Shown here piece after piece: positions 5,056-44,469 of a stretch of 64,000 nt of DNA (its first letter is position 1; each line of letters starts with the position of its first letter). The translations under genes and the position numbers were made by a program. Below the pieces are notes generated by a model. It was not told the origin of the DNA. It saw only the letters and a program-made list of their open reading frames with translations, and ran no database searches. The stretch lies in the NCBI GenBank assembly GCA_040757085.1, contig JBFLXJ010000011.1:36086-100085 (forward strand). The letters are read 5' to 3'. This stretch comes from Bacillota bacterium (lineage in GTDB: Bacteria > Bacillota > Sulfobacillia > JACIYH01).

Positions 5056-5134
5056 GGCGCGCGGCGAAGGTCTGTTGGACTTGTGACCTCCCGGGAATAC
5101 ATCGTCAGGCGTGGGCTGAGAGGAGGCAGGAGTT

Positions 5135-7114: not shown

Positions 7115-7274
7115 GACAACACGTAGCATGCCCGCGGTACACCGCAATGCCCTGTGCAACACCCGAGGAGGGAAGCCCTGGAAAGGGGGTGACGGCCGGG
7201 AAACTCTGGGTATTCACTACGGGTCAAGTTGGTTTGTGTGTGCGGGAAGGATGTCAGCTTCAGGAGGTGAGAAG

Positions 7275-14643: not shown

Positions 14644-14650
14644 CCCCCAG

Positions 14651-16233: not shown

Positions 16234-16594
16234 CCGGGATCAGGACGTGGTGATCTGCCGCTGTGAGGATGTCACGTTGGCCGAGATCAGGCGTCTGGTT
16301 GCCGAGGGTGCCTGTACTCTGGATGAGATAAAGAGGCTGACGCGGGCGGGGATGGGTTTGTGTCAGGGGCGTACGTGCCGGCACCTGATCCTGCAGGAGG
16401 TGTCGCGGCTGACCGGGGTGCCGGTGGAGGAGCTGGTGCTGCCCACCTTCCGTCCTCCCACCCGTCCTGTGAAGCTGGGTGTTATCGCGCGCGCGGCGGC
16501 TGCCCATGAGGCCGGCGCCGGGGTGGCTGCCCAGCACGCTGTCGGCGAGGTGCCTGCCTGCCAGGCTCCGGCAGGGGATGGTGGCCATGGTTAA
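16226..16594 (+). CDS. BFD-like (2Fe-2S)-binding domain protein
   Basis: CRCEDVTLAEI...GMGLCQGRTC pattern of BFD-like [2Fe-2S] domain; start uncertain (TTG 16202 / GTG 16226). Confidence 0.55.
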   Translation: MSDRDQDVVICRCEDVTLAEIRRLVAEGACTLDEIKRLTRAGMGLCQGRTCRHLILQEVSRLTGVPVEELVLPTFRPPTRPVKLGVIARAAAAHEAGAGVAAQHAVGEVPACQAPAGDGGHG

Positions 16595-17732: not shown

Positions 17733-17808
17733 AGGAGCCCCCGCCGCAGGACGGGCGTGACCCCTGAGGCGGGAGGGAGCCGGGCAGGGCGGAGCGCGGG
17801 GTGGGAGC

Positions 17809-18963
17809 GTGGCAGACCTGATCGAGCGCACAGCCGACGCGGTCATAGTGGGGGGCGGGGTGCACGGGTGTGCGGTTGCCTACCACCTCTGCCGCCGTGG
17901 GCTCAAGGTTTCTCTGTTCGAACGGGGATACCTGGCCAGCGGCGCCACCGGGCGTTCTGCGGCGGGGGTCCGCCACCAGTTCGGCACCGAGATAAACTGC
18001 CGCCTGGCCATCTGGAACATTCGTCTCCTGGAGCACCTGGGGGAGGAACTCGACTACCCGTACGACCTGGAATTCACCCAGGGAGGGTACCTCCTGCTGG
18101 CGTACACACCCGGCCAACTGGAGCAGTTTGCCCGGAATGTGACCCTGCAGCGCAGCCTGGGCATTCCGTCAACCATCCTGTCTCCCGAGGAAGTGGCCCG
18201 GGTCGCACCTGGTCTCAACCTGGACGGGGTTCTGGGAGCCAGTTTCTGCGCGCGGGACGGTCACGTCAACCCCTTCCACCTCACCTGGTCGTACGCCCGG
18301 GCGGCCCGGCGCCTTGGTGCCCGCATTCACTGTTTTTGCCCGGTACATGCCGTGCTCGCCGGTGACTCGCGGGTGCGCGGCGTGCTTACCGGTGCCGGAC
18401 GGGTGGAGGCCCCGGTGGTGGTGATATGTGCGGGGGCGGAAGGAGCGGAACTGGCCCGCGCTCTGGGGCTAGATGTCCCTGTGTATGGTGAGCGGCACCA
18501 GATCCTGGTCACTGAGCCCGTGGCCCACTTCCTCGATCCCATGGTGCTCTGTTTCGAGGACGGCAGTTACTTCAAGCAGACCCCTCACGGCAGCCTGCTC
18601 ATGGGTATCGGAAGCCCCTTCGAGCCCAAAGGGTACGGGCAGGGGTCCAGCTGGCACTTTATGGAGGAGATGGCGTCGCGCATCGTGCGCCACGTTCCTG
18701 CCCTGGCCGGCGTGCGGGTGGTGCGGCAATGGGCCGGCCTCTATGATATCACTCCGGATTCCCAAGCCATCGTGGGGCCTGCCCCCCTGGAAGGGTTGTG
18801 GCTGGACCTGGGCTGGAGCGGCCACGGTCTGCAATTTGCCCCCAGTATCGGCCTCATCCTGAGCCAGCTCATCGTGGGAGAGCCTCCCTTGGTGGATGTC
18901 AGCCCGTTCCGCCTGGGGCGTTTTGCCACCGGCGAACTGGTACCGGAACCGGCCTGTGTGTGA
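17809..18963 (+). CDS. FAD-dependent oxidoreductase, sarcosine-oxidase-beta/HcnC/OoxB-like (beta subunit copy 2, tandem paralog)
   Basis: DAVIVGGGVHGCAVAYHLCRRG; collinear similarity to the upstream 16587-17732 gene (e.g. RHQILVTEPV, VVRQWAG, GWSGHG). Confidence 0.8.
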   Translation: MADLIERTADAVIVGGGVHGCAVAYHLCRRGLKVSLFERGYLASGATGRSAAGVRHQFGTEINCRLAIWNIRLLEHLGEELDYPYDLEFTQGGYLLLAYTPGQLEQFARNVTLQRSLGIPSTILSPEEVARVAPGLNLDGVLGASFCARDGHVNPFHLTWSYARAARRLGARIHCFCPVHAVLAGDSRVRGVLTGAGRVEAPVVVICAGAEGAELARALGLDVPVYGERHQILVTEPVAHFLDPMVLCFEDGSYFKQTPHGSLLMGIGSPFEPKGYGQGSSWHFMEEMASRIVRHVPALAGVRVVRQWAGLYDITPDSQAIVGPAPLEGLWLDLGWSGHGLQFAPSIGLILSQLIVGEPPLVDVSPFRLGRFATGELVPEPACV

Positions 18964-19075
18964 TGCAAGAGGAAGGAGGCGAGAGCGACCCATATTCCGG
19001 TGACTCGTAGCGGCCCCAGAGGCCAGGTCAAAGGCGGTTAGAGTCAAGCTCACCATCAGCCAGGAGGAGAGAACG

Positions 19076-20227
19076 ATGAGAAAAATAATGGTGTGTGTGG
19101 TTGTCCTGGGTCTATTGCTCTCCGTATCCGCTGCCTGCGCCCAGCAACCCAAGGCCAAGCCTACGATCAAAATCGGTTACTTGGCGCCTCTAACGGGTGA
19201 TTGGGCGTTCGAAGGCCAGGAGGGCATAAAGAAGCCACTCGAAATGCTGGTCGAGCAGGTGAACAAGCAAGGCGGGTTGTTGGGAGGCAGGCAGATCGAG
19301 CTTATCTCCGCCGACGATCAGAGTGATGCCAAGCAGGCTGCTCTAGCTGCCCAAAAGCTCATAACAGCCGGTGCGAAAATCGTTATCGGGTCTTACGCTT
19401 CCACGTGTACCGAACCGGCTTCGCAGCTGTTCAACGACGCAGGGATCCTGCACATCACGCCGATATCCACGGCTACACGGCTAACGGAAAAAGGCTACAA
19501 ACGATTCTTCCGTACCTGCGTTACGGACGACAAGCAGGGGCTGTTTGCTGCTGAGTTCATTTCCAAGACGCTGGGCAAGAAGCGGGTAGCCATCATACAC
19601 GACAACACCACGTACGCCAAAGGCCTTGCTGATTGGAGCAAGAAGTACATGGAAGACGCCGGGCTGGAAGTGGTGTTCTTCGATGCAATTACTCCCAAAG
19701 AAAAGGACTACACGGCTGTTCTTACGAGGCTCAAGGCCGCTAAGCCCGAGGTCTGGTACTTTACCGGCTATTACCCAGAAGCTGCTCTACTGGTCAGACA
19801 GGCCGCAGACGTGGGTTTGGATGCGCAGATGATGGTGGGCAATGCAGTTAACAACCCCGAGTTCGTGAAGATGGCGGGAATTGAGTTTGCCAAGCGTGTG
19901 ATCATCACTACCGAGCCGATGCCGAAGGACCTCCCATGGCCGGAGGCCAGGAAGTTCCTGGAAGATTACAAGGCTCGGTATGGCGAATATCCGCGCAGCG
20001 TCTGGGCGCCTTTCACCGCAGATGCTTTCCGCGTAATCGTGGAGGCGATCAACCGCACGAACTCGGACGACCCAGCCAAACTTGCTGAGTACCTGCATAA
20101 TGAGCTTAAGGATTTCCCTGGCATCAGCGGACTGATACCAGGCTTCGATGAAAAGGGCGACCGTAAGGGCACCATCCACATGGCGTATACCGTTAATGAC
20201 CAGGGCGAGTTCGTGCTGTGGAAGTAG
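19076..20227 (+). CDS. ABC transporter substrate-binding protein, branched-chain/hydrophobic amino-acid (LivJ/K) family
   Basis: signal peptide; type-I periplasmic binding fold motifs; AGGAGG RBS. Confidence 0.85.
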   Translation: MRKIMVCVVVLGLLLSVSAACAQQPKAKPTIKIGYLAPLTGDWAFEGQEGIKKPLEMLVEQVNKQGGLLGGRQIELISADDQSDAKQAALAAQKLITAGAKIVIGSYASTCTEPASQLFNDAGILHITPISTATRLTEKGYKRFFRTCVTDDKQGLFAAEFISKTLGKKRVAIIHDNTTYAKGLADWSKKYMEDAGLEVVFFDAITPKEKDYTAVLTRLKAAKPEVWYFTGYYPEAALLVRQAADVGLDAQMMVGNAVNNPEFVKMAGIEFAKRVIITTEPMPKDLPWPEARKFLEDYKARYGEYPRSVWAPFTADAFRVIVEAINRTNSDDPAKLAEYLHNELKDFPGISGLIPGFDEKGDRKGTIHMAYTVNDQGEFVLWK

Positions 20228-20233
20228 CCGTGG

Positions 20234-20266
20234 GGGGGAGGGGCGGTCGAGTACCGCCCTTTCCCC
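20234..20266 (+). promoter_or_regulatory. strong GC stem-loop immediately after the SBP gene stop (possible intra-operon attenuator/partial terminator)
   Basis: GGGGGAGGGGCGGT-CGAGT-ACCGCCCTTTCCCC, ~13 bp stem; no U-tract. Confidence 0.3.
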
Positions 20267-20299
20267 TGTCGATCCTGAAGGGGTAGGGTGGTTCGAGCC

Positions 20300-21301
20300 A
20301 TGGCGTGCTGCTTCGAGGTGGTTGACACCCACACGCAGGGGGAACCCACGCGGGTTGTGGTGAGAGGTGTCGAAGATGTGCCCGGCTCCACCATGCGAGA
20401 GAAGAAACAGTATCTGGCTGAACACCTGGACCACATCAGGCAGTTGCTGATGTTTGAGCCACGAGGGCACATCGATATGTTCGGAGCGATCATTCTCCCG
20501 CCGACCTCCCCGAAAGCCCACCTGGGCGTGATCTTCGCGGAGGGTGCAGGGTACCTGGACATGTGCGGACACGGTACCATGGGAGTCGTCCGGGTTGCCA
20601 TTGAGTTAAAGCTTGTTCCTGTCCAAGAACCACACACGACGATTGTTCTTGATACCCCTGCGGGGCTCGTTACGACCCATGCACAGGTGAAGGATGGTAA
20701 GGTCTCCGCGATCACCGTCGCAAATGTTCCCTCCTTTGTACGGTACCCCAACGTTCGTGTTCGGCTCCCCGATGGGCGCACTGTAGACGCAGCCGTGGCT
20801 TACGGTGGAAACTTCTTCGTCCTTGTGCGGGCCAGGGACGTTGGGCTGAACATCGAACGGGGCAACGTGCAGCAATTCAGGCAGATGGGGGAACTGATCA
20901 GGCGAGCGGTGTCAGATGCGGTTGATATAACTCACCCGGATGCGCCGTCGGTTAGGCACACGCCCTTGGTTGAGTTTTACGAAGAAGCCGATTCCGTGAC
21001 CGGTCGACCTGCGCGGAACGTGGTGTTCTTCGGGGCTGGCCAGATCGACAGGTCGCCGTGCGGAACAGGCACCTGTGCTAAGATGGCGTGGATGTACGCC
21101 CGGGGGGAGTTACGGCTGAATGAGGACTTTGTGCATGAGTCTATCCTGGGAACTAGATTCGTCGGGCGTGTCATAGGCGAAACGACCGTGGGGTCCTATC
21201 GTGCGGTGATCCCGCAGGTAAGTGGCAACGCCTTTATAACCGGCTACAATCGGCTGGTCTTGGAGGAGGACGATCCGTTTCCCCACGGGTTCCTGCTTTG
21301 A
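20300..21301 (+). CDS. proline racemase family enzyme (proline racemase / 4-hydroxyproline 2-epimerase)
   Basis: both catalytic Cys contexts present (DMCGHGTMG and DRSPCGTGTCA); N-terminal VDTHTQGEPTRVV; start ATG 20300 or GTG 20288. Confidence 0.8.
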   Translation: MACCFEVVDTHTQGEPTRVVVRGVEDVPGSTMREKKQYLAEHLDHIRQLLMFEPRGHIDMFGAIILPPTSPKAHLGVIFAEGAGYLDMCGHGTMGVVRVAIELKLVPVQEPHTTIVLDTPAGLVTTHAQVKDGKVSAITVANVPSFVRYPNVRVRLPDGRTVDAAVAYGGNFFVLVRARDVGLNIERGNVQQFRQMGELIRRAVSDAVDITHPDAPSVRHTPLVEFYEEADSVTGRPARNVVFFGAGQIDRSPCGTGTCAKMAWMYARGELRLNEDFVHESILGTRFVGRVIGETTVGSYRAVIPQVSGNAFITGYNRLVLEEDDPFPHGFLL

Positions 21302-21373
21302 AGCTCCCAGGTGTTGCTGGCTGGGACGCCAGGGGGCTCACTGGGCCTTGTTAGGTGGAGGTAGGCGAGGCGC

Positions 21374-22279
21374 ATGGAGCAAATCGTTCAGCAGGTGTTA
21401 AATGGGCTCACGGTGGGGTCGGGTTACGCCCTGGTTGCCCTGGGCTACACGATGGTATACGGGGTCCTGAAGTTCATCAACTTTGCTCACGGAGACCTGT
21501 TCATGTTGGGCACGTACGTCGGCCTCAGCGTGGCCCTTGTTTGTCTGGGCGGCGGCTTGTCGAATCAATGGCTCGTTCTCTTACTGGTATTCGTCGCAGC
21601 CATGAGTCTGGTCGGCCTCGTCGGGGTATCCATAGAGCGCGTTGCGTACCGTCCTCTCCGCAGGTCGGGCAGGCTGGCCCCGGTCGTGTCTGCCCTAGGA
21701 TGCGCGGTTGTATTGCAGAACGCGGTTATGCTGGCTTCCGGTGCTCGCTACCAGGTGTTCCCGGAAGGGCTGGTGCCAAGCGCGGCATGGAGGGTGGCAG
21801 GCATGACCGTCCCCTTGCTGAGAGTAAGTGTGCTGATCCTCTCTTTGATCTTCATGGGACTCTTGTACCTGTTCATCCATCGCACTACTGTGGGGGCGGC
21901 CATCCGCGCCACTGCGCTGGATCACGATACTGCCCGGCTCATGGGCATCAATGTGGACCGCATCATAATGCTGGTGTTCCTGATCGGCCCTGCCTTGGGC
22001 GCGGCAGCAGGCATTATGATCGGGCTCTACTACCGGCAAGTATACTTTACCATGGGCTGGAGCTATGGTCTGAAGGCTTTCACCGCGGCCGTCTTGGGAG
22101 GGATTGGCAACATCCCCGGGGCTATGGTAGGTGGCATAATCCTCGGCTTGTTGGAGACCCTTGGTGCAGCATACATCTCGGCGGCTTGGAAGGATGCCTT
22201 CGCCTTTCTCCTGCTCATCAGTATCTTGATCTTGCGCCCCACCGGCCTCTTGGGCGAGCGGGTAGCGGAAAAGCTTTAG
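21374..22279 (+). CDS. livH: branched-chain amino acid ABC transporter permease (LivH-type)
   Basis: typical LivH N-terminus MEQIVQQVLNGLTVGSGYALVALGYTMVYG, 8 TM. Confidence 0.8.
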   Translation: MEQIVQQVLNGLTVGSGYALVALGYTMVYGVLKFINFAHGDLFMLGTYVGLSVALVCLGGGLSNQWLVLLLVFVAAMSLVGLVGVSIERVAYRPLRRSGRLAPVVSALGCAVVLQNAVMLASGARYQVFPEGLVPSAAWRVAGMTVPLLRVSVLILSLIFMGLLYLFIHRTTVGAAIRATALDHDTARLMGINVDRIIMLVFLIGPALGAAAGIMIGLYYRQVYFTMGWSYGLKAFTAAVLGGIGNIPGAMVGGIILGLLETLGAAYISAAWKDAFAFLLLISILILRPTGLLGERVAEKL

Positions 22280-22291
22280 GGGGCGGCAGAG

Positions 22292-23278
22292 ATGGTGAGC
22301 AAGATACCCCGCAGAGCTTGGGTCAGTGTTCTGGTAGCAGGTCTCGTTGCTTGCCCATGGCTGGTAAGTGACTATTGGGTAGATGTAATGAACTTCTGCG
22401 GCATCTACATCTTGCTGGGCCTGAGTTTGAACGTCATCGTCGGGTACGCGGGACTGTTCAATCTGGGGCATGCGGCATTCTATGCGGTAGGTGCGTACAC
22501 CACAGCTATTCTTTCTACCCGCCTGGGCATACCATCGCTGCTACTCCTGCCTGTGTCCGCGCTGGCAGCTGCCGCCTTCGCGTATATCATCTCCCGTCCC
22601 ATTATCCACCTCCGGGGCGACTACCTGTGCGTAGTGACCATCGGGTTCGGCGAGATCGTGCGCATTGCCCTGCTCAACAATCCATGGGGCCTCACGGGCG
22701 GAGTCAACGGCGTGTTTGGTATCCCGCGACCCAGCCTGGGATTCTTCACCATACGGACGGTGGACCAGTACTACTACTTCATCCTGCTGTTCATCGTGCT
22801 GTTCGTGTGGGCCATGAGGCGCTTGGAGAGGTCCCGCGTGGGCAGAGCATGGACGTGCATAAGGGAGGACGAAACGGCAGCCGAGGCCATGGGGATGGAT
22901 ACCGCATCGCTGAAGCTGCTTGCGTTCGTGCTGGGGGCGGCGGGGGCGGGAATCGCCGGCAACATCTATGCATCCAAGATGACCCTGATTGCCCCCGAGA
23001 GCTTTAACTTCTGGGAGTCGTGCGTCATGTTTTGCATCGTGGTACTGGGCGGAACTGGTTCCATCCCAGGGGTAATTGTAGCCTCCTTGGGCATGACCGC
23101 CCTGCCCGAACTGTTCCGGGAATTTGCCCGGGCGCGCATGCTCGTCTTCGGCCTGGCCATGGTGCTCATGATGATCTTCCGCCCCCAGGGGTTGTGGCCC
23201 AGCGCCCACTGGCGCCGGCAGGTCCAGCGAGAGGGGGACCTGGCCGGGACTCCAACGGCGGCTACAGGTCCCGGCTAG
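22292..23278 (+). CDS. livM: branched-chain amino acid ABC transporter permease (LivM-type)
   Basis: hydrophobic LivM-like permease, follows livH. Confidence 0.8.
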   Translation: MVSKIPRRAWVSVLVAGLVACPWLVSDYWVDVMNFCGIYILLGLSLNVIVGYAGLFNLGHAAFYAVGAYTTAILSTRLGIPSLLLLPVSALAAAAFAYIISRPIIHLRGDYLCVVTIGFGEIVRIALLNNPWGLTGGVNGVFGIPRPSLGFFTIRTVDQYYYFILLFIVLFVWAMRRLERSRVGRAWTCIREDETAAEAMGMDTASLKLLAFVLGAAGAGIAGNIYASKMTLIAPESFNFWESCVMFCIVVLGGTGSIPGVIVASLGMTALPELFREFARARMLVFGLAMVLMMIFRPQGLWPSAHWRRQVQREGDLAGTPTAATGPG

Positions 23279-23372
23279 CGGGCTTTCGCCCGATGCTTGC
23301 TGGTGAGTGCTCTGGCGGTGGGGGCTGGGTGCCGCATCCTGGGCCAGTTTCGCAAGGAGCAGGTGGTGACCC

Positions 23373-24143
23373 TTGCTGGAAGTGAAGTCCCTGACAAAGC
23401 GGTTCGGTGGACTGGTGGCGGTCAACCGGGTGGAGTTCGAGTTACGTCCGGGCGAGATCCTGGGCATGATAGGGCCCAACGGGGCCGGCAAGACCACGGT
23501 TTTCAACATGATCACGGGGATTTACCGGCCTGACGAAGGGAGCATCCGCCTTGAGGGCCGGGAACTGGTGGGGCTGCGCCCCCACGACATCACCGCCCTG
23601 GGGATCGCGCGGACCTTCCAGACCATCAGGCTTTTTCCTAACCTGACTGTCATGGAAAACGTGATGGCGGGCCAGTACTGTCGCACGCGGGCGGGGATAT
23701 GGGACGCCCTGGTGCTCAGCCGGCGCCACCGTCAGGAAGAAGCGGCTATCCTGGAGGAAGCGGAGAGGCGACTGGCCTTCATGGGCCTTTCCCACCTGGC
23801 GGAGGAACTCGCCCGCAACCTCCCCTATGGTTTGCAGCGCCGGCTGGAGATCGCCCGTGCCCTGGCCACGCGGCCCAAGCTCCTGGTCCTGGACGAACCC
23901 GCGGGGGGATTAAACGACCAGGAGACTAGAGAGTTGATGGACTGGGTGGTCCAGATCCGGGACAGTGGGATCACCGTTTTCCTGATCGAGCACGACATGA
24001 CGGTGGTAATGGGGATCTGCGACCGCATCATCGTGCTGGATAACGGCGAAAAGATCGCCGAAGGCACACCCGCAGAGGTACAGTCCAACCCGCGGGTGAT
24101 CGAAGCATATCTGGGGAAGGAAGAAGAGGGGTTCCATGGTTGA
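23373..24143 (+). CDS. livG: ABC transporter ATP-binding protein (LivG-type)
   Basis: Walker A GPNGAGKTT, signature and Walker B LLVLDEPAGGLN, LivG C-terminal extension. Confidence 0.85.
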   Translation: MLEVKSLTKRFGGLVAVNRVEFELRPGEILGMIGPNGAGKTTVFNMITGIYRPDEGSIRLEGRELVGLRPHDITALGIARTFQTIRLFPNLTVMENVMAGQYCRTRAGIWDALVLSRRHRQEEAAILEEAERRLAFMGLSHLAEELARNLPYGLQRRLEIARALATRPKLLVLDEPAGGLNDQETRELMDWVVQIRDSGITVFLIEHDMTVVMGICDRIIVLDNGEKIAEGTPAEVQSNPRVIEAYLGKEEEGFHG

Positions 24144-24861
24144 CCAAGGCATCCTGGAAGTGCAAGACCTGCACGTCTATTACGGTCACGTCCATGCCCT
24201 CAAGGGCGTTACGTTTCAGGTCTACCCGGGAGAAATCGTGGCCCTGCTTGGAGCCAACGGGGCGGGCAAGTCCACCACCCTGCGGGCAATTTCCGGGTTG
24301 GTCCGTCCCCGCCAGGGGGATGTGCGGTGGCAGGGCCAGTCTCTGCGTAACGTCCCTGCTCATGCCATCGTGGCCAGAGGGGTTTCCCACGCCCCCGAGG
24401 GGCGCAGAGTGTTCAGTACCCTTACCGTGGAGGAGAACCTGAACCTGGGCGCGTACAGCAGGCGCGGGGATCGAGAGGGTGTAGCCCGCAGCAAGGAGCG
24501 TGTCTTTACCCTCTTCCCCCGGCTGGCCGAGCGCCGCCACCAGCTAGCCGGCACGCTCTCGGGAGGAGAACAGCAGATGCTGGCGATCGGCCGGGCCCTG
24601 ATGTCCTCGCCCCGTCTTCTCCTCCTGGACGAGCCCTCCCTGGGACTGGCCCCTCTGCTGGTGCGTGCCATCTTTCAGACCATCCGGGAGATAAACGAGC
24701 AGGGGGTCACCATCCTGCTGGTGGAACAGAACGTGCGGGCGGCCTTGCGTCTGGCTCACCGCGCCTACGTTCTGGAAACGGGTAGGCTGGCCCTGGCGGG
24801 TACGGCGGAGGAATTGCGCCAGGATCCCCGCGTGCGCAAGGCCTACCTGGGCGAGAAATAG
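24136..24861 (+). CDS. livF: ABC transporter ATP-binding protein (LivF-type)
   Basis: Walker A GANGAGKSTT, LSGGEQQMLAIGRAL signature, 8-nt overlap with livG. Confidence 0.85.
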   Translation: MVDQGILEVQDLHVYYGHVHALKGVTFQVYPGEIVALLGANGAGKSTTLRAISGLVRPRQGDVRWQGQSLRNVPAHAIVARGVSHAPEGRRVFSTLTVEENLNLGAYSRRGDREGVARSKERVFTLFPRLAERRHQLAGTLSGGEQQMLAIGRALMSSPRLLLLDEPSLGLAPLLVRAIFQTIREINEQGVTILLVEQNVRAALRLAHRAYVLETGRLALAGTAEELRQDPRVRKAYLGEK

Positions 24862-24939
24862 CTGGCCCGAGACCTGCCCGGGGTGGGAACGCGGTCTCGG
24901 GGAAAACGCCCGGTCCCGCCGGGCAAGGAGGTGCTCGCT

Positions 24940-25938
24940 GTGCCCGGGGATTTGCTCATACTCACGGCGGACGACGTCAGGCGGGCTCTGCCCATGGAGC
25001 GGGCCATTTCGGCGTGTGAGGAAGCCTATGGAGCCTACTCCTCAGGCCAGGCCCTGGTTCCCCTGCGCACCCAGATTCCCGTGCCCGAATTCGAAGGGGT
25101 CAGCGTTTTCATGCCCGGTCACGTTTCCGGCGCGGGGGCGACCGGTCTCAAGGTGGTCTCCGTGTACCCGCGCAACCCGGAACACGGGCTGCCCACGATC
25201 ATGGGGATGGTGGTCCTGCTCGATGCTTCCACAGGTACCCCCCTGGCCCTGCTGGAAGGTGGGTACCTTACCGCCCTGCGCACGGGAGCGGCAGCGGGGG
25301 TGGCAGCCCGGTACCTTGCCCCCGCCGGTGCCCGGGTGGCAGCGCTGTTTGGGGCCGGGGTCCAGGGCCGCACCCAGGTGCTGGCGCTGGCGGCCGTGCG
25401 ACCCATCGAGGAGGTGCGGGTGTTCGATCCCGTGCCCGGACGCGCCCAGGCGCTGGCCCGCGACCTGGCCGGCGAGCTCCCCGCGGTAAGGTGGGTGTTT
25501 CCCTCCCACCCCCGGGAGGCAGTGGCGGGAGCGCAGGTGGTGCTCGCTGCTACCACTTCCTCGCGGCCGGTATTTCCCGGCGATGCTCTCGCCCCGGGTA
25601 CCCACGTCACTGCCATCGGGGCATTTACCCCCAGCATGCAGGAGATAGATGAAACTACTATCTTGCGCGCCAGCAAACTGGTGGTGGATTCCCGGGAGGC
25701 GGTGCTGGCCGAGGCCGGGGACATCATCATTCCCCTCCGGGAGGGGAAGATCACCCGTGATCACATCTTCGCAGAAATAGGCGAGATAGTGCTCGGCCGT
25801 AAACCCGGCCGCCAGGCCGCCGACGAGACCACCGTGTACAAGGCGGTGGGTCTGGCGGTGCTCGATGTGGCGGCCGCGGCCGCCGCCTACCGGGGCGCCC
25901 GGGAACTGGGCCTGGGCACCAGAGTGCGGCTGCTCTGA
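24940..25938 (+). CDS. ornithine cyclodeaminase / mu-crystallin family enzyme
   Basis: OCD-family Rossmann segment ALFGAGVQGRTQVLALAAVRP; GTG start 8 nt after AAGGAGG; six-frame ORF upstream extension rejected. Confidence 0.8.
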   Translation: MPGDLLILTADDVRRALPMERAISACEEAYGAYSSGQALVPLRTQIPVPEFEGVSVFMPGHVSGAGATGLKVVSVYPRNPEHGLPTIMGMVVLLDASTGTPLALLEGGYLTALRTGAAAGVAARYLAPAGARVAALFGAGVQGRTQVLALAAVRPIEEVRVFDPVPGRAQALARDLAGELPAVRWVFPSHPREAVAGAQVVLAATTSSRPVFPGDALAPGTHVTAIGAFTPSMQEIDETTILRASKLVVDSREAVLAEAGDIIIPLREGKITRDHIFAEIGEIVLGRKPGRQAADETTVYKAVGLAVLDVAAAAAAYRGARELGLGTRVRLL

Positions 25939-36209: not shown

Positions 36210-37505
36210 GTGTGTTCCGATGACGGTTCGCAGGGGCTGCGTAAGGAAGTAGACCTGGGCAAGGCAGGAGCCCCAGTTCAGGTGTGCAGGGTCAGCCTGG
36301 TTCGTGCCAGCCAGGAACAGGCAGTCCGGCGCGCTGTGCAACTGGCCGGGGCGCTTGACCTGATGGTGGGGTCCGGGAGTCGGGTACTGATCAAGCCCAA
36401 CCTGGTGGCCGTGCCTCCGCACCCGCGCAACGGGGCGGTCACGTGGGTCGAGGTGGTCCGCGCGGTGGCCGACGTGGTGCGGGACATGGGGGGGCGTCCT
36501 GTCATCGCCGATTCGGCGGCGGTGGGGGCCTGCACCGAGGACGTCGTGGCCGTCTGCGGCTATGGTGCTCTCCGGGAGAAGGGATACCCGGTGCTGGACC
36601 TCAAGGACACCGAGGAAGTCGAGGTGGCGGTACCGGGCGGCGTCGTCCTTTCTCACCTGGTGACGTACCGGCCCGTGCTGGAGGCAGACCTGGTGGTGAG
36701 CGTGCCGGTCCTCAAAACCCACGACCAGTTGGGAGCCAGCCTGGCCATCAAGAATCTCAAGGGACTGCTCGCCGACCGGGACAAGAAGCGTCTGCACGCG
36801 GTGGGCGTGGTGGAGGGAGTATGTGACCTCCTCACCGTCCTGCCCCCCCTGTATGCAGTGGTGGACGGCACCGTGGGCCAGGAAGGACTGGGACCGGTGT
36901 TCGGGCGTCCGGTTCCTCTGGGGGTCGTGCTGGCGGGGGCCGACCTGGTAGCGGTCGATACGGTGGCGGGATGGATCATGGGCTTCGGGCCCGGGGAGCT
37001 GCCGCTTTCCCGCCGGGCAGCGGAACGGGGCCTGGGATGCGGGGATCTGGAGGCCATAGAGGTGACGGGGGAGGATCCTGCTCGGGTACGCCGGCGGTTT
37101 GTACGGGCAGAAGAGGATGTCTCCCTGGACATCCCCGGCTTCCGGGTAGTGTTCGCACCGCGGACCTGCACGGGGTGCCACCACACCGTGCTTTCCGTGG
37201 TGGCGGAGATCACAGGGGAGGGACGGACGGCCGCTCTGCACGGCAAGACGGTGGTGGCGGGGCGGCTTTCCCCTGCGGACGTGCAAGGCTTTGACCAGGA
37301 TAGGCGCGGGAGTGCAGCGGATTGTCCCGGTGGATGCAGCAGCCCCCGGTTTTTCCCTTGCCCCGGCGAGCCTTACGAGAAGAATGTGGTGCTGGTGGGA
37401 AACTGCCTGGCTGAGCATGCCCGCCTGGGAAGCTGCTGGGTGAGGGGATGCCCACCCCACAACGCCTGGGTCAAGGATGCCTTACTGCGGGGTCCCGGCC
37501 CCTGA
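36210..37505 (+). CDS. DUF362 domain protein (putative Fe-S/ Cys-rich C-terminus)
   Basis: DUF362-type core (VLIKPNLVAV...PVLKTHDQLGASLAIKNLKG) and C-terminal Cys cluster; start uncertain. Confidence 0.6.
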   Translation: MCSDDGSQGLRKEVDLGKAGAPVQVCRVSLVRASQEQAVRRAVQLAGALDLMVGSGSRVLIKPNLVAVPPHPRNGAVTWVEVVRAVADVVRDMGGRPVIADSAAVGACTEDVVAVCGYGALREKGYPVLDLKDTEEVEVAVPGGVVLSHLVTYRPVLEADLVVSVPVLKTHDQLGASLAIKNLKGLLADRDKKRLHAVGVVEGVCDLLTVLPPLYAVVDGTVGQEGLGPVFGRPVPLGVVLAGADLVAVDTVAGWIMGFGPGELPLSRRAAERGLGCGDLEAIEVTGEDPARVRRRFVRAEEDVSLDIPGFRVVFAPRTCTGCHHTVLSVVAEITGEGRTAALHGKTVVAGRLSPADVQGFDQDRRGSAADCPGGCSSPRFFPCPGEPYEKNVVLVGNCLAEHARLGSCWVRGCPPHNAWVKDALLRGPGP

Positions 37506-37612: not shown

Positions 37613-37641
37613 TTGACAGAAGTGGTAGGCTGTGCTATAGT
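37613..37641 (+). promoter_or_regulatory. sigma-A type promoter (TTGACA-17 nt-TATAGT, with TGn extended -10)
   Basis: TTGACA at 37613-37618, TATAGT at 37636-37641, 17-nt spacer; ~30 nt upstream of riboswitch. Confidence 0.6.
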
Positions 37642-37669
37642 GGGCGCCAAACACAATACGGGTCGGGGG

Positions 37670-37811
37670 ACTCTTATCCAGAGCGGCGGAGGGACTGGCC
37701 CGATGAAGCCCGGCAACCGGTCACGGGGCTAAGGCCGGCGACGGCCCCAGCCCGAGAGCGTGATGACGGTGCCAACTCCTGCGGAACCCCACGGTTCCGA
37801 GAGATGAGAGG
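37670..37811 (+). ncRNA. SAM-I (S-box) riboswitch
   Basis: matches S-box consensus blocks: CTCTTATCcAGAGcGGCGGAGGGACTGGCCCGATGAAGCCCGGCAACC ... GGTGCCAACTCCTGCGG ... GAGAGATGAGAGG. Confidence 0.85.
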
Positions 37812-37821
37812 TCCGGCTGGA

Positions 37822-37849
37822 CGCCTCTTCCTCTCGGAGAGGCGTTTTT
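37822..37849 (+). terminator. riboswitch expression-platform intrinsic terminator
   Basis: CGCCTCTTCCTCTCGGAGAGGCG hairpin followed by TTTTT; 5' arm can alternatively pair with the riboswitch P1 3' strand (antiterminator). Confidence 0.7.
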
Positions 37850-37889
37850 CGTTCTCCGGGGCTCCCGGGGGTCCCCCACCCGGGAGGAG

Positions 37890-39431
37890 GTGCCCATCTT
37901 GCCCAAGACGTTCGCCGAGATCAACCAGCGCATCCGGGAGGGCAAGGCGGTTGTGGTCACCGCCGAGGAAGTCATCCCGCTGGTGCGGGAGAAGGGCCCC
38001 CGCCGGGTGGCCCAGGAGGTGGATGTGGTTACCACGGCCACCTTCGCCCCCATGTGCTCGTCGGGAGCGTTCCTGAATTTCGGCCACAGCGAACCGCCCA
38101 TCAAGATGCAGTCGGTACGCCTGAATGACGTCCCCGCCCATGCCGGGGTGGCGGCGGTGGACGCCTACCTGGGGGCCACCGAACTCAGCCGCGTGCGGGG
38201 GATGGACTACGGGGGCGCGCACGTCATCGAAGACCTGGTATCGCGGCGGCCGGTCCTGCTGGAGGCGGAGAGCTACGGGACTGACTGTTACCCGCGGCGG
38301 TCGATCCGTACTTTCATCAGCCTGGACTCCCTGAACCAGGCCTACCTTTTTAACCCCCGGAACTGTTATCAGAACTACGCCGCCGCCACCAACGGCTCGG
38401 ACCGGATCATCTACACCTACATGGGCAAGCTCCTGCCCCGCTTCGGTAACGTGACGTATTGCAGTGCCGGCCAGCTCAGCCCCCTGCTCAACGACCCCGA
38501 CCTGCGTACGGTGGGCATTGGCACCCGGGTGTTCCTGGGCGGGGGCATCGGATACGTGGCCTGGGAGGGAACGCAGCATTTCCCGGCGCGCCGTCGCCGG
38601 GGTGACACACCGGTGGGGCCGGCGGCCACCCTGGCGCTGGTAGGGGATTTACGGGGGATGGACCCGCGCTTCCTGCGCGCCGCCACCTTCACGGGCTACG
38701 GGGTCACCCTGTTCGTGGGGGTGGGGATTGCCATCCCCATCCTGGATGAGGATCTGGCTCGCCAGGTGGCGGTGAGCGACCGGGAAATCCACACGGTGGT
38801 CCTGGACTACGGCCAACCCCACCGGGATCGCCCCGTGGTGGCCGAGGTGAGCTACGCGGAGCTACGCTCCGGGCGTGTGCTGTTGCGGGATCGCTGGGTG
38901 CCCGCTGCGCCGCTGTCCAGCCTGCGCAAGGCGCGCGAGATCGCTGTCATCCTGAAAGATTGGGTGGCGAGCGGACGTTTCTTGCTAACGGAGCCGGTTG
39001 CTCCCCTTCCCTGGCGTGATTCCCTGCACACCCTGGCCGTTACTCCGCGGGCCGGAAGCGATCCTGCTGCGGCGGAGACAGCTGCCTCTGCAGAGGGGGA
39101 CGGTCGGGGAGCATCGGGTAGGGCGGGTGTACCTGCTGCCCCGGAGGTCGCGGCCCCGGCGCAGGGGGCCGAGGGCAAGGGGGTAGAGGTTCCCCCCAGC
39201 CCTGCGACCGATCTTCTGCGGAACGGCAGGGGAAGGCCCGAACCGGATGGGGAACGCTGTGTGGCGTGTGGTGCCTGCACCGGGGTGTGCCTGCCGGGGG
39301 CGCTGCACCTTGACCCGGCCACCTGGGAGCTCTGCTGGCGGCCGGATCTGTGCACATCCTGCGCCCTGTGCCTGGATGCTTGCCCGGTGGGGGCCCTGGG
39401 CGTGGCCGTGCCCGCTGGAGGAGAGGGGTGA
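37890..39431 (+). CDS. homocysteine biosynthesis enzyme, COG1900/DUF39 family (sulfur incorporation) with C-terminal 4Fe-4S ferredoxin domain
   Basis: DUF39-type N-terminal region (AVVVTAEEV...VDVVTTATFAPM), C-terminal CVACGACTGVCLPGA...CTSCALCLDACPVGA; sits under SAM riboswitch. Confidence 0.7.
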   Translation: MPILPKTFAEINQRIREGKAVVVTAEEVIPLVREKGPRRVAQEVDVVTTATFAPMCSSGAFLNFGHSEPPIKMQSVRLNDVPAHAGVAAVDAYLGATELSRVRGMDYGGAHVIEDLVSRRPVLLEAESYGTDCYPRRSIRTFISLDSLNQAYLFNPRNCYQNYAAATNGSDRIIYTYMGKLLPRFGNVTYCSAGQLSPLLNDPDLRTVGIGTRVFLGGGIGYVAWEGTQHFPARRRRGDTPVGPAATLALVGDLRGMDPRFLRAATFTGYGVTLFVGVGIAIPILDEDLARQVAVSDREIHTVVLDYGQPHRDRPVVAEVSYAELRSGRVLLRDRWVPAAPLSSLRKAREIAVILKDWVASGRFLLTEPVAPLPWRDSLHTLAVTPRAGSDPAAAETAASAEGDGRGASGRAGVPAAPEVAAPAQGAEGKGVEVPPSPATDLLRNGRGRPEPDGERCVACGACTGVCLPGALHLDPATWELCWRPDLCTSCALCLDACPVGALGVAVPAGGEG

Positions 39432-39435
39432 CCCC

Positions 39436-40177
39436 CGTGCAGGTGGAGGAAAGATTCTACCGCCACGTCATGGGGGGTGCCGACCTGGTCACCTTCCAGG
39501 TGCAGGAAGGAGAAACAGACCTGTGGGTAGGGGTGGATCGGGAGAGTTGGCGTCTCGATCTCCCCGACCGGGTCCGCGAAGTCGTGCGGCGTGTGCGCCG
39601 GGACCTGGAAGACTACATCGGCAGAGACAGCAGGTTTATGACTTCCCTGGTGCCGGTGCCGGTCCCCGAGGATGTCCCCGGCGTGGTCCGCGAGATGGCC
39701 ATTGCCGCTGCCCGGGTGGGGGTAGGTCCCATGGCGGCTGTGGCCGGCGCGGTGGCCGAAGAGGTGGGACGGGCCCTTCTGGGCGAGGCCGGCGAGGTCA
39801 TCGTGGAGAACGGCGGTGACATCTTCCTCTGCAGCCGCAAACCGCGCCGGGTGGCGATCCTGGCCGGAACGTCGCCGTTCTCCATGCGGGTGGGCCTGCT
39901 CATCCGGGGAGACGGCCGTCCCGTGAGCGTGTGCACCTCGGCGGGACGCTGGGGGCATTCGCTGAGTTTGGGGCGGGCGGACGCGGCGGTGGCGGTGGCC
40001 CCGTCAGGGGCTCTGGCCGATGCCGCCGCTACCTGGCTGGGGAACCTGGTTCGGGAAGTGGGGGACCTTCCCACCGCTCTGGAACAGGCCCGCCGCCTGT
40101 CCGGGCTGACGGGGGCGGTGCTGATCAAAGACGCTCAGTTGGCGGCCTGGGGCGACATCCACCTTACCCCCGTCTGA
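39436..40177 (+). CDS. UPF0280/COG2122 (ApbE-like) family protein, partner of COG1900
   Basis: size and conserved blocks (GPMAAVAGAVAEEVG, VIVENGGDIFL) consistent with COG2122; GTG start after GGAGGAGAGGGG. Confidence 0.6.
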
Positions 40178-40286: not shown

Positions 40287-40316
40287 TTGACAACATGAGC
40301 GGGCAGATGCTATTTT
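40287..40316 (+). promoter_or_regulatory. sigma-A type promoter of hrcA operon (TTGACA-18 nt-TATTTT)
   Basis: TTGACA 40287-40292, TATTTT 40311-40316, immediately upstream of CIRCE. Confidence 0.55.
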
Positions 40317-40327
40317 CTTGATGGGTT

Positions 40328-40354
40328 TTAGCACTCTGCTGGCCGGAGTGCTAA
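40328..40354 (+). promoter_or_regulatory. CIRCE operator (HrcA binding site), perfect consensus
   Basis: TTAGCACTC-TGCTGGCCG-GAGTGCTAA, perfect 9-N9-9 inverted repeat. Confidence 0.85.
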
Positions 40355-40363
40355 GGTGAGACG

Positions 40364-41401
40364 GTGGACGAGCGCAAGCGGAGGATACTGCAGGCCATAG
40401 TGGAGGACTACGTGGCCACGGCCGAGCCGGTGGGTTCTCGCACCATCGCGCGCAAGTACGGGCTCGGGGTCAGCGCGGCCACTATCCGCAATGAGATGGC
40501 GGATCTGGAAGAGTTGGGGTACGTGGAGCAGCCCCATGCTTCGGCGGGGCGTATCCCATCTGACCGGGGATACCGCTACTACGTGGACGAACTGATGGAG
40601 GTGAAGCCGCTACCTGCCCCTGTGGCCGAGCGTGTCCAGGAACTGTGTGAGGGCCGCGTGCGGGCCATGGAAGCGGTGCTTCAGCAGGTGGCGCGCCTCC
40701 TCAGCGAGGCTACCAGTTCGTTGGCCATCCTGGTGGGGCCCCATGCTGGTCAGATGGTGTTCCGCAGCCTGGATCTGGTTCCCATCGGGCCCGGGCGGGC
40801 GCTGCTGGTGGCCGTGGCGGACCTCGGATTGCTGGAGTCGGGTATGGTGGAAGTCCCTGCGGATCTTACCCGGGCTGAACTCCAGTACATCTCCCAGGTG
40901 CTCACCCGGGCGCTGCGTGGCCTGACGGTGCAGGCACTGACTCAGAGCGTATTGCGGGAACTGGACGCGGAGCTGGCCCGTTACCGTCAGGTGCTGGAGC
41001 AGGTCCTGGAGATTCTGGTGGCCTCGGCCGGCGAACATCCCTCCGAGCGTATGTACCTGGTAGGGCTGAGCGCCCTGCTTTCGCAGCCCGAGTTCCACGA
41101 TCGGCAGCGGCTGCGGGCGGTGATATCAGTCCTCGAACAGGAGGTCCTGGTGAAGTACCTGCTTCTGGCCTCGGGGGAGCGAGCGGTGGAGTCGGGGGTG
41201 ACGGTGAGCATAGGCCAGGAGAATCCTCTGGGCGAGGTGCGCGACCTGAGCCTGGTGTTCGCTCCCTATCGGGTGGGCATGTCCCTGGGACGGCTGGCGG
41301 TGATAGGTCCCAAGCGTATGGACTACGGCCGGGTCGTGGGGGCGGTGTCGGAGTTCGAACGGGTACTGAGCGATCTCCTGGGGAGGTGGACCCTCGTGTA
41401 G
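40364..41401 (+). CDS. hrcA: heat-inducible transcription repressor HrcA
   Basis: N-terminal RKRRILQAIVEDYVATAEPVGSRTIARKYGLGVSAATIRNEMADLEELGY; GTG start. Confidence 0.9.
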   Translation: MDERKRRILQAIVEDYVATAEPVGSRTIARKYGLGVSAATIRNEMADLEELGYVEQPHASAGRIPSDRGYRYYVDELMEVKPLPAPVAERVQELCEGRVRAMEAVLQQVARLLSEATSSLAILVGPHAGQMVFRSLDLVPIGPGRALLVAVADLGLLESGMVEVPADLTRAELQYISQVLTRALRGLTVQALTQSVLRELDAELARYRQVLEQVLEILVASAGEHPSERMYLVGLSALLSQPEFHDRQRLRAVISVLEQEVLVKYLLLASGERAVESGVTVSIGQENPLGEVRDLSLVFAPYRVGMSLGRLAVIGPKRMDYGRVVGAVSEFERVLSDLLGRWTLV

Positions 41402-41464
41402 GGAGGGCGTCACCGGCCCCAGATTTCGCTCCTAAATCTTTTTTTTGTGCAGGGAGGTCTATAG

Positions 41465-43060
41465 ATGGCGCTCAAGCAGGTGGCGTCCGGTGCCGAGATC
41501 GACGAAAAGCTGGCGGCCCTATTGACAAATGCCAACGCGGTGCGTGCGATCGCCTCCGCAGTGGAAGGCACCATCGGTCCCAAGGGTCTCAACACCCTGC
41601 TGGTTGACCGCTTCGGAGACGTGACCATAACCAACGACGGGGTGACCATCCTTACCAAGATGGACGTCAACCACCCCGCCGCCAAGATGGTCATCAACGT
41701 GGCCCGTGCCCAGGAAGAGGAAGTGGGGGACGGTACCACAACCGCCACCATCATGGCAGGAGCGCTCCTCACCGAGGGTGTGAACCAGGCGGTGAGAGGG
41801 GTACCGGTGACGCGCATCATCGAGGGGGTCAAGCTCGGCATCCGCAAAGCGATCGAGGAAGTGGAGGCCAGGTCGCGACCGGTAGCCGGAGTGGATGATC
41901 CCATCCTGCGCCGGGTGGCGTACATTTCCGGACGGGAACAGGAGGACATCGCCGACCTGGCGGTGCGGGCGGCCGCCATGGTGGGAAAAGAGAAACTCCT
42001 CGACCGCTCTTTCAAGCTTTCGGACACCGTGGTGGCCAAGGCCGGGGCGGATAACGAAGTGTTCATGGGGGTCATCGTGGACAAGCAACGCACGAACAGG
42101 GAGATGCCCAAAGAGGTGTTCCCCGTCCGGGTCCTGGTGGTGGACGATGCTCTGGAGCCCGAGGAGATAGAAGAGGAAGCCCTCGGCACCGAGGCCGGCT
42201 TTGGCCGCTACATGCAGTTGCAGGAAGAGTTCCGTGCCAACGTGCGCAAGGTGATCTCCCTGGGCGTCAACCTGGTAGTGGTGGACCGCGGAGTGGACGA
42301 GGCCGCGGAGGAAATGTTCACTGACGCCGGGGTCATGGTGCTGCAGCGGGTATCGTCCCGGGAGCTGCGCCAGGTGGCCGAGCATACTGGGGCCAGAGCG
42401 ATCAAGCGCACCGCCCTGCGCAAGGAGCCGGCGGAACTGGAGAAGTATCTGGGCGCGGCGGACCGGGCGTACGAAGACGAGAAGCTGGAGCACGTGCGCA
42501 TCCTGGGTGGAAAGGGCAAGCCCATGGCCACCATCCTGGTGGGTGCAGCCACCCAGGAGGTGGTGGGTGAGCGGGAACGCATCGCCAAAGATGCCACCTC
42601 GGCCGTGCAGGCAGCGGTGCGGGGCGGGGTGGTCCCGGGAGGAGGGGCCATCGAGCTGGCGGTGGCGCGGGAGGTAGAGAAGCTACGCGCCAGCGTGCGG
42701 GGGATGGCAGCCTACGGGGTCGATTGCGTGGCGGAAGCCCTCAAGAAGCCCCTTTCCCAGATTGTGGCCAACGCCGGTTTCAATCCCCTGGAGAAAGTGG
42801 GGGACGTAATCGCTGCTCAGGTGGAGAGGGGCTCGGATTCGCTCGCGGTGGACTGCGACACCGGTGAAGTGGTGGACATGTACGAGGCGGGGGTGGTCGA
42901 TCCCACTCCTGTCAAGACCTATGCTCTGCGGGCGGCGGGAGAGATCGCGGAAGCTATCCTGCGCATCGACACGATCATAAAGAAGAAGGATGAGGGAGGA
43001 CCCGGCCAGCAGGGCGGGGAAGAGACTGGCGGTTCCCCTGGGGGAGAGATGGACTTCTGA
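41465..43060 (+). CDS. group II (thermosome/TCP-1 family, archaeal-type) chaperonin
   Basis: TCP-1 signatures LGPKGLNTLLVDRFGDVTITNDGVTIL, HPAAKM, EVGDGTTTATIMAGALL; 531 aa; GGGAGG RBS. Confidence 0.85.
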   Translation: MALKQVASGAEIDEKLAALLTNANAVRAIASAVEGTIGPKGLNTLLVDRFGDVTITNDGVTILTKMDVNHPAAKMVINVARAQEEEVGDGTTTATIMAGALLTEGVNQAVRGVPVTRIIEGVKLGIRKAIEEVEARSRPVAGVDDPILRRVAYISGREQEDIADLAVRAAAMVGKEKLLDRSFKLSDTVVAKAGADNEVFMGVIVDKQRTNREMPKEVFPVRVLVVDDALEPEEIEEEALGTEAGFGRYMQLQEEFRANVRKVISLGVNLVVVDRGVDEAAEEMFTDAGVMVLQRVSSRELRQVAEHTGARAIKRTALRKEPAELEKYLGAADRAYEDEKLEHVRILGGKGKPMATILVGAATQEVVGERERIAKDATSAVQAAVRGGVVPGGGAIELAVAREVEKLRASVRGMAAYGVDCVAEALKKPLSQIVANAGFNPLEKVGDVIAAQVERGSDSLAVDCDTGEVVDMYEAGVVDPTPVKTYALRAAGEIAEAILRIDTIIKKKDEGGPGQQGGEETGGSPGGEMDF

Positions 43061-43066
43061 CCTGGA

Positions 43067-43357
43067 GTGGTGGGTTTGGAAGCCGGCGATGACCCACTGG
43101 TACTCAAGCTGGCCCAGTACCTGACCACCGAGTTCCGGGAGCGAACCGGGGTGGACCTGCGCTCTGACCCGGTGGCCTGGGACAAAGTCCTGCGGGCGGC
43201 CAGGCAGGCACGCCGGCAACTCGCCCGCTCCACGGTATACAGCGTCTCGCTCCCCTTCCTCGTGAGGGGGAATGAAGGACCCCTTCACCTGGACGTGGTG
43301 ATCACGCAGCGCCAGTTCCTGGAACTCATGATGGGGGAGGTACCCGGGGAGGGCTAG
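43067..43357 (+). pseudogene. Hsp70/DnaK-like fragment (96 aa, corresponds roughly to DnaK residues ~225-320); probable remnant
   Basis: alignable to DnaK segment [58 protein letters not shown]...IKVTRAKLESL (~30% identity by eye); no N-terminal ATPase start or C-terminal SBD. Confidence 0.45.
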
Positions 43358-43359
43358 CT

Positions 43360-44469
43360 TTGCCCGACAAGCGGGACTACTACGAGATCCTCGGTGTGAG
43401 CCGGGATGCCAGCCAGGAGGAAATAAAGAAGGCGTTCCGGCGGCTGGCTCGCCAGTACCACCCGGACGCCAACCCCGGTGACCCCACTGCCGAGGAGAAG
43501 TTCAAACAGATTAACGAGGCGTACGCGGTCCTTTCCGACCCTGAGAAGCGGGCGCGCTACGACGCCTTCGGCGCGGTCGACGGTGCCCCCGACCTGGGGA
43601 GTCCCTTCGCTGGCATCCAGGACCTGTTCGACATGTTCTTCGGGACCGGCCGGCCCCGGGGGCCGCGGCCCCATGAGCCCAAGCGGGGGGCCGACCTGCG
43701 CTTGGATCTGGACATCACCCTGGAGGAAGCCTTCGCCGGGGTCGAGAAAGAGCTGGAAGTACCGCGGGTGGAGCGGTGCCCCATCTGCGATGGGACGGGG
43801 GCCCGGCCCGGGAGTCCACCGGTAATATGTTCCCGATGCCGGGGTAGCGGGCAGGTGGAAACGGTGTCCGACAGCCTGTTCGGTCGCTTCGTCTCCATCC
43901 GCACCTGCCCGGCGTGCGGCGGAGAAGGGAGGGTGGTGACCGACCCCTGTCCCGACTGCGGAGGACTGGGCCGGGTGCGGCGGGTGCGGCACATCAACGT
44001 CAAGGTCCCCCCGGGGGCGGACAGCGGTTTGCGGCTGCGCCTGGCCGAAGAAGGTGAACCCGGTGCCCGGGGTGGACCTCCTGGCGACCTGTACGTGGAC
44101 ATCCATGTGCGGCCGCATCGCTTCTTCCGCCGGGAAGGCGACGACCTGCACTGTGAGGTAACCATCAGTTTCATCCAGGCTGCCCTGGGCACCGTGCTGG
44201 AAGTACCCACTCTGGAGGGGTCAAGTCCGGTTAAGGTGCCCGAGGGGACGCAACCCGGAACGGTGATCCGGCTGCGGGGCCTGGGGATGCCCCGCCTGCG
44301 GGGAGGAGGAAGGGGTGACCTGCACGTACACCTGGACGTGCGCACTCCTACCGGGCTCAGCCCCCGGGAGAAGGAGTTGCTGCGGGAGCTGGCTGCCATC
44401 CGCGGGGAGGGCGTCAAGGGGAAGGACAAGGGGATATGGGGGCGCGTGAAAGAAGCCTGGAACAGCTGA
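43360..44469 (+). CDS. dnaJ: molecular chaperone DnaJ
   Basis: J-domain DYYEILGV...HPD, Gly/Phe region, four CxxCxGxG zinc-finger repeats. Confidence 0.9.

Follow-up and report, generated by a model that had tools for sequence, protein, structure and literature searches.

A predicted SAM-repressed operon for homocysteine synthesis from aspartate semialdehyde and sulfide in an uncultured Bacillota bacterium

Organization of the locus

An S-adenosylmethionine (SAM)-I riboswitch followed by two genes was identified in a 64,000-nucleotide (nt) stretch of DNA from an uncultured Bacillota bacterium (contig JBFLXJ010000011.1, assembly GCA_040757085.1), referred to here as the window, whose positions are used throughout. 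The sequence-only reading of this stretch had described a complete S-box leader, a COG1900/DUF39 gene with a C-terminal double-Cys ferredoxin domain and a COG2122/UPF0280 gene, and had proposed an Rfam search of the leader as a check. Aptamer, promoter, terminator and antiterminator were all recovered, and the aptamer scored above, not below, the SAM-I threshold (RF00162, 84.5 bits vs. a gathering threshold of 44.4, E 1.6e-18, in a scan of the whole window). The product of gene 1 matched the full profile of the HcyBio family (PF01837, positions 1-349 of 349, 494.6 bits vs. a gathering threshold of 26.2, E 1.8e-148), and its C-terminal end matched Fer4 families and contained two CX2CX2CX3C motifs. 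The product of gene 2 matched NF003323 (PRK04334/UPF0280) over profile positions 6-249 of 250, with 279.3 bits and a cutoff of 271. Both family assignments and the ferredoxin domain thus stood. The promoter and CIRCE (controlling inverted repeat of chaperone expression) operator of an hrcA operon lie directly downstream, and the SAM-controlled unit therefore comprises these two genes only, ending at 40177.

The two encoded proteins

The most likely start codon of gene 1 is TTG 37899, eight nt beyond a Shine-Dalgarno (SD) sequence (GGGAGGAGG, 37882-37890), and the NCBI gene call from the same TTG also gives a protein of 510 amino acids (aa). This call and the spacing of the SD sequence disfavour GTG 37890, which opens the open reading frame (ORF) and would yield a 513-aa product. 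The start at TTG 37899 also accounts for the lack of an exact database match to the 513-aa product: the 510-aa protein is instead 100% identical to P0001, a 510-aa protein of the Bacillota metagenome-assembled genome (MAG) GCA_049324795.1 that carries the NCBI name "homocysteine biosynthesis protein".

Within the catalytic domain, Cys130 is invariant in the 79 aligned COG1900 homologues, and position 53 is occupied by Cys in 40 of them and by Glu in 39. Judging by residue number and motif, since MA1821 itself is not in the alignment, Cys53 and Cys130 would correspond to Cys54 and Cys131 of this protein, the two conserved cysteines that are the hallmark of COG1900a and of which Cys54 is essential (PMC12068725). 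The AlphaFold model has a predicted local distance difference test (pLDDT) score of mostly 80-97 over residues 1-370, and the linker that follows was modelled as disordered (pLDDT below 50, residues 392-438). Fer4 families matched residues 453-503 of the ORF product, where eight cysteines form two CX2CX2CX3C(P) motifs readable in the sequence (CVACGACTGVC and CTSCALCLDACP); the best PDB matches of this domain were the polyferredoxin MvhB and HycF-type ferredoxins. A NIL domain (PF09383) was not detected in the gene 1 protein at E<=1, with control proteins from three related loci (L006, L014, and L021) matching at 1e-12 to 1e-16, and a custom NIL hidden Markov model that found 29 loci gave no match in the window. 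The domain search likewise returned no CBS domain for this protein.

The GTG start of gene 2 at 39428 overlaps the TGA stop codon of gene 1 (GTGA), an arrangement from which translational coupling of the two genes is predicted; a start at 39350, also considered, was replaced by GTG 39428 or GTG 39437. The 249-aa product is listed as PF27030 (AbpE_bact) in the precomputed annotation. The Pfam search yielded no model for it, and its identity was settled by NCBIfam and PF27030. It also matches an uncharacterised PDB structure, 2o34 (E 2.7e-39). The motifs GPMAAVAG and NGGD are present in 26 of 26 COG2122 homologues, and Cys166 (246-aa numbering), located in the motif VCTSAG-x2-GHS-x-S-x-G-x-AD, is the single cysteine invariant in the same 26 proteins. 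Such a residue would be compatible with the persulfide-relay idea put forward in the literature.

The leader RNA

The promoter of the leader was found in a consensus scan with 11 of 12 consensus matches; four promoter-like sites were observed between 37400 and 40500, vs. 0.1 expected from shuffled sequences. RF00162 was the sole Rfam family matched across the window at gathering thresholds. The aptamer is full length, with a P3 lengthened by an insertion of approximately 38 nt, and is followed after 9 nt by a terminator hairpin with a G+C-rich stem (-18.1 kcal/mol); the SD sequence of gene 1 lies about 47 nt farther downstream. In the predicted antiterminator, which has the classical S-box arrangement, the terminator stem would give up its 5' half to pair with the segment that carries the 3' strand of P1 (37803-37810). 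Comparison with two related loci, L001 and L002, showed the elements of the leader to be conserved: the promoter is kept in L001 and the terminator and antiterminator in both, the aptamer is near-identical in the three loci, with differences restricted to the P3 extension, and the flanks have diverged, whereas aptamer and terminator are almost invariant. We infer that this leader binds SAM and terminates transcription in vivo. The features of the locus are listed in Table 1.

Table 1. Coordinates of the features of the SAM-I-controlled locus in the window.
Feature	Position	Strand	Details
Sigma-70-type promoter	37613..37641	+	-35 TTGACA 37613-37618; 17-nt spacer with TG extension; -10 TATAGT 37636-37641
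SAM-I (S-box) aptamer, full length	37671..37810	+	RF00162, model positions 1-108/108
Predicted antiterminator helix	37796..37838	+	37796-37816 pairs with 37817-37838; -26.7 kcal/mol (folding)
Intrinsic terminator of the expression platform	37819..37852	+	12-bp stem (37819-37847), 5-nt loop, T-run
Gene 1, COG1900a/HcyBio (L-aspartate-semialdehyde sulfurtransferase-type) fused to 2x[4Fe-4S] ferredoxin	37899..39431	+	510 aa from TTG 37899 (most likely start)
HcyBio/COG1900 catalytic domain	37947..38987	+	PF01837; contains Cys53 and Cys130 (510-aa numbering)
Ala/Pro/Gly-rich linker	38997..39239	+	~80 aa; occupies the place of the gene boundary and NIL domain in relatives
C-terminal dicluster ferredoxin domain	39246..39398	+	CVACGACTGVC and CTSCALCLDACP; Fer4, Fer4_7, Fer4_6
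Gene 2, COG2122/UPF0280 (ApbE-like)	39428..40177	+	249 aa; GTG 39428, alternative GTG 39437
Unit boundary: next promoter and perfect CIRCE operator of the hrcA operon	40287..40354	+	Promoter 40287-40316; CIRCE 40328-40354

Relatives and distribution of the riboswitch

A scan of species-representative genomes for relatives returned 80 loci. The gene order COG1900, ferredoxin, COG2122 was found in about 30 other loci, belonging to Bacillota and Thermoplasmata, and the ferredoxin module was found to occur in three forms. The commonest is a NIL-ferredoxin of approximately 135 aa that matches MA1822, another is a bare ferredoxin of 63-72 aa (L003, L010, L011, L013, L016, L019, and L031), and in the third the ferredoxin is fused to COG1900 by way of a linker of low complexity (the window, L001, L002, L037, and P0002-P0009). 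The fusion clade is a small group of Bacillota MAGs (P0001-P0009, L001, L002, and L037) with a long disordered linker. Three further loci that had been taken as fusions (L004, L005, and L012) were discarded, since translation revealed a stop codon in frame and NIL-ferredoxin as a gene of its own; true fusions are limited to the members just listed. The NIL domain is also missing from 10 other loci.

A SAM-I aptamer was detected by Rfam 5' of the operon in 11 other loci (L001, L002, L010, L011, L013, L014, L015, L019, L031, L037, and L039). Ten of them have a U-run hairpin behind the aptamer, and these terminators show no sequence relationship from clade to clade. The remaining locus, L037, has an aptamer at 4336-4449 with no obvious U-run terminator behind it, and its order over 4336-8095 is aptamer, an ORF that by eye only resembles aspartate kinase, the COG1900-ferredoxin fusion and COG2122. 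If this ORF does encode an aspartate kinase, the arrangement would fit a SAM-controlled flow from aspartate through aspartate semialdehyde to homocysteine.

Among bacterial loci with enough upstream sequence, SAM-I aptamers were carried by 9 of 10 operons without NIL vs. 3 of 12 operons with NIL (Fisher p 0.004). In a neighbour-joining tree, the loci with SAM-I group into two or three clades, which are not independent, and the association is therefore a trend rather than an independent correlation or a demonstrated rule. That NIL-less relatives tend to carry the riboswitch is a small new point of this comparison. It may be, although we hold this tentatively and with slightly more doubt than belief, that where NIL has been lost and CBS is absent, feedback on the DUF39 route has been taken over completely by the SAM-I riboswitch from protein allostery, and that the clade of the window has additionally joined a bare ferredoxin with COG1900 into a minimal L-aspartate-semialdehyde sulfurtransferase (abbreviated L-ASST) of one chain.

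Two side observations were made among the relatives. The 39 COG1900 homologues with Glu at the position of MA1821 Cys54, all of which keep Cys131, should be, by locus range, the cyanobacterial loci L042-L080. Neither a ferredoxin nor a COG2122 neighbour was found within 6 kb in these loci, and their COG1900 proteins probably do something other than L-ASST chemistry. A SECIS_4 match (52.8 bits vs. a threshold of 38) was also obtained by Rfam at 8818-8855 (-) of L034, near the COG1900 locus of a Peptococcaceae MAG.

Proposed function and alternative explanations

Sequence families, motifs, the RNA family match and conserved synteny are the direct evidence on which the interpretation of the locus rests. 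Very probably, it is a two-gene methionine operon that is repressed by SAM through transcription attenuation and directs the formation of homocysteine from aspartate semialdehyde and sulfide. At low levels of SAM, the antiterminator would form and RNA polymerase would proceed into the genes; when SAM is bound, P1 would hold its 3' strand, allowing the terminator to form and transcription to end. As to the chemistry of the enzyme and the part played by COG2122, we infer that gene 1 encodes a single-polypeptide L-ASST (COG1900a), whose COG1900 domain would transfer sulfide-derived sulfur to aspartate semialdehyde via its two conserved cysteines, and whose tethered 2x[4Fe-4S] ferredoxin would provide the two electrons that reduce the intermediate to homocysteine. 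Gene 2, with its one invariant cysteine, would encode a required accessory protein with a probable role in the delivery or relay of sulfur in persulfide form. The NIL and CBS domains of M. acetivorans reportedly bind methionine and SAM, respectively (PMC12068725); gene 1 has neither domain, which places feedback at the RNA level and leaves the riboswitch as the visible feedback device.

Published genetics and biochemistry fit this scheme. In D. vulgaris, mutants in DUF39, NIL/ferredoxin and COG2122 are methionine auxotrophs, which establishes a requirement for the three genes in bacteria (Price et al. 2018, PMC5764234), homoserine is not an intermediate, and homoserine dehydrogenase is dispensable for methionine synthesis (PMC5764234). 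Extracts of methanogens turn aspartate semialdehyde and sulfide into homocysteine, and Cys54 of MA1821 is essential (cited in PMC5764234 and PMC12068725). The role in methionine biosynthesis that the sequence-only reading had proposed agrees with the Desulfovibrio vulgaris results (PMC5764234) and with the presence of SAM-I on the gene set in 11 other loci. Its label "archaeal-type", by contrast, was overstated, because the pathway is common among anaerobic bacteria, in which it has also been demonstrated by genetics.

Several points weigh against this interpretation. Folded without constraints, the entire leader has a minimum free energy that could not be told apart from that of shuffled sequences (z -1.4), which is usual for high-GC leaders, so the case for the switch is carried by the Rfam match, the local helices and conservation. 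No solved structural relative of the COG1900 domain was found against which to check the active site. Even in model organisms there is no settled account of COG1900 chemistry or of what COG2122 does, and the COG2122 mutant of M. acetivorans is rescued by high sulfide (PMC5764234). In addition, this organism may have a further route to homocysteine besides the locus.

This last point is the substance of an alternative that concerns exclusivity and not the identity of the locus, namely, that the operon is real but auxiliary or redundant, the genome also encoding the canonical pathway of homoserine acylation and sulfhydrylation (metA/metX with metY or metB/metC), so that the locus would be no mark of an unusual methionine metabolism. 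We regard this as a possibility on the doubtful side, though one with real weight. The data cover only the 64-kb window and the overlapping contig L081, and M. acetivorans carries both homocysteine routes; there, deletion of MA1821-22 reportedly leads to auxotrophy only in combination with an oahs deletion. On the other hand, no metA, metX, metY, metB, metC, metE or metH was found among the annotated ORFs of the window, which leave several stretches uncovered, a result that says little about the genome, and the DUF39 route is the sole one in Desulfovibrio and Dehalococcoides (PMC5764234).

Two other alternatives are very improbable. The COG1900-ferredoxin protein could make a different thiol, by a reaction like that of the coenzyme M (CoM) synthase MMP16 on another aldehyde, or could serve general sulfide trafficking, given that MMP16/ComF likewise joins COG1900 and ferredoxin, that COG1900 enzymes are partly interchangeable (PMC12068725), and that COG2122 of M. 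acetivorans affects sulfide assimilation generally (PMC5764234). However, an identity of gene 1 with MMP16 (COG1900d) was rejected, as its score against TIGR03287 was far below the cutoff (133.3 bits vs. 363.95) and its ferredoxin is C-terminal and not inserted as in MMP16; moreover, its cysteines lie at COG1900a positions, and SAM-I riboswitches, which govern methionine and SAM genes, recur on the operon in 11 other loci. It is equally hard to credit a riboswitch whose main effect is on translation or mRNA stability instead of transcription termination, or one that has lost its ability to switch and persists as a relic. The unimpressive z-score of the global fold and the L037 aptamer without a U-run terminator would be in line with this, but a strong U-run hairpin lies between the aptamer of the window and the SD sequence, at the spacings given above, the antiterminator overlaps P1, and aptamer and terminator have stayed almost invariant in the window, L001, and L002 despite their diverged flanks. 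A SAM-attenuated methionine operon thus remains the preferred interpretation.

In the literature searched, no statement linking SAM riboswitches with DUF39/COG1900 was found, although an earlier description in Rodionov 2004, Rauch 2014 or RegPrecise is possible. The pairing of SAM-I with DUF39 operons is common and obvious in genome data, and the pathway, the ferredoxin fusion and the adjacency of COG2122 have already been published (Kuehl 2014, Rauch 2014, Price 2018), and the NCBI pipeline already gives the protein its correct name; the locus is therefore ordinary and changes no concept. Its interest lies in the wiring to a SAM sensor, as for metY/metA, which constitutes independent evidence, at the level of regulation, for a role of the DUF39/COG2122 pair in the methionine synthesis of Bacillota. 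Furthermore, a naturally fused, NIL- and CBS-free and probably thermostable L-ASST is possibly a convenient target for COG1900 enzymology and structure determination.

Genomic neighborhood

On its 3' side, the operon is adjoined by a CIRCE/HrcA-controlled heat-shock operon (40287-44469) that comprises hrcA (40364-41401), a gene for a "group III" chaperonin of the thermosome-like kind (Cpn60_TCP1, 41465-43060), one for a free-standing 93-96-aa fragment of HSP70 (43067-43357) and dnaJ (43360-44469), with neither grpE nor a full-length dnaK. By eye only, the HSP70 fragment resembles subdomain IIB of the DnaK nucleotide-binding domain, and a gene of the same size and 78% identity is present in L001 (2817..2491). 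Group III chaperonins within dnaK operons were already known (PMC5635000). Directly 5' of the riboswitch promoter, and outside the SAM-controlled unit, lies a gene (36210-37505, +) whose product matches DUF362 (PF04015, E 7e-45) and has a C-terminal extension that contains Cys.

Farther upstream, the window encodes a large serine recombinase (Resolvase, Recombinase, and Zn_ribbon_recom; 11079-12632, +), which could mark an integrated or developmentally excised element. The region 14477-25938 (+) contains genes for flavin adenine dinucleotide oxidoreductases (one Pyr_redox_2 and two DAO), a small 4Fe-4S protein, a branched-chain amino acid ATP-binding cassette transporter and an ornithine cyclodeaminase. 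Together with an opine dehydrogenase-like gene at 2465-3559, this cluster looks like an amino-acid or opine catabolic island.

Comparison with known systems

The leader resembles those of the classical Bacillota S-box regulon (metK, metY-metA, hom, and metNPQ), examples of which have been described in C. difficile (PMC11477304), in its aptamer family, its terminator/antiterminator logic and its negative feedback by SAM. The regulated genes differ, however, since they belong to the DUF39 route instead of the acyl-homoserine route.

With the methanogen L-ASST (MA1821/MA1822), for which the reaction of aspartate semialdehyde with sulfide and two electrons to give homocysteine has been proposed (PMC12068725, PMC5764234), the locus shares a COG1900a domain bearing the two conserved cysteines, a partner ferredoxin of the 2x[4Fe-4S] type and an accompanying COG2122 protein. 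In contrast to the methanogen system, COG1900 and ferredoxin form one polypeptide that lacks the methionine-binding NIL domain and the SAM-binding CBS pair, COG2122 is encoded within the same operon, and feedback would come from a SAM-I riboswitch and not from allosteric domains.

The same three modules make up the bacterial DUF39 pathway of Desulfovibrio (DvMF_1464, DUF39; DvMF_0262, NIL/ferredoxin; DvMF_0044, COG2122; also Dde_3007), where all of them are genetically needed for methionine prototrophy (PMC5764234, PMC4045070). Unlike the compact riboswitch-controlled fusion operon described here, the Desulfovibrio genes are scattered and their ferredoxin is joined to NIL. No cis-acting SAM riboswitch has been reported for Desulfovibrio DUF39, in contrast with the window, and regulation in trans by the DseA RNA has been proposed in that genus (10.1101/803072). 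A parallel to the architecture of gene 1 is THA_1098 of Thermosipho africanus, a fusion of a DUF39 orthologue with a ferredoxin domain, which was noted in 2014 together with the frequent fusion or adjacency of DUF39 to ferredoxin and its adjacency to COG2122 (PMC4045070).

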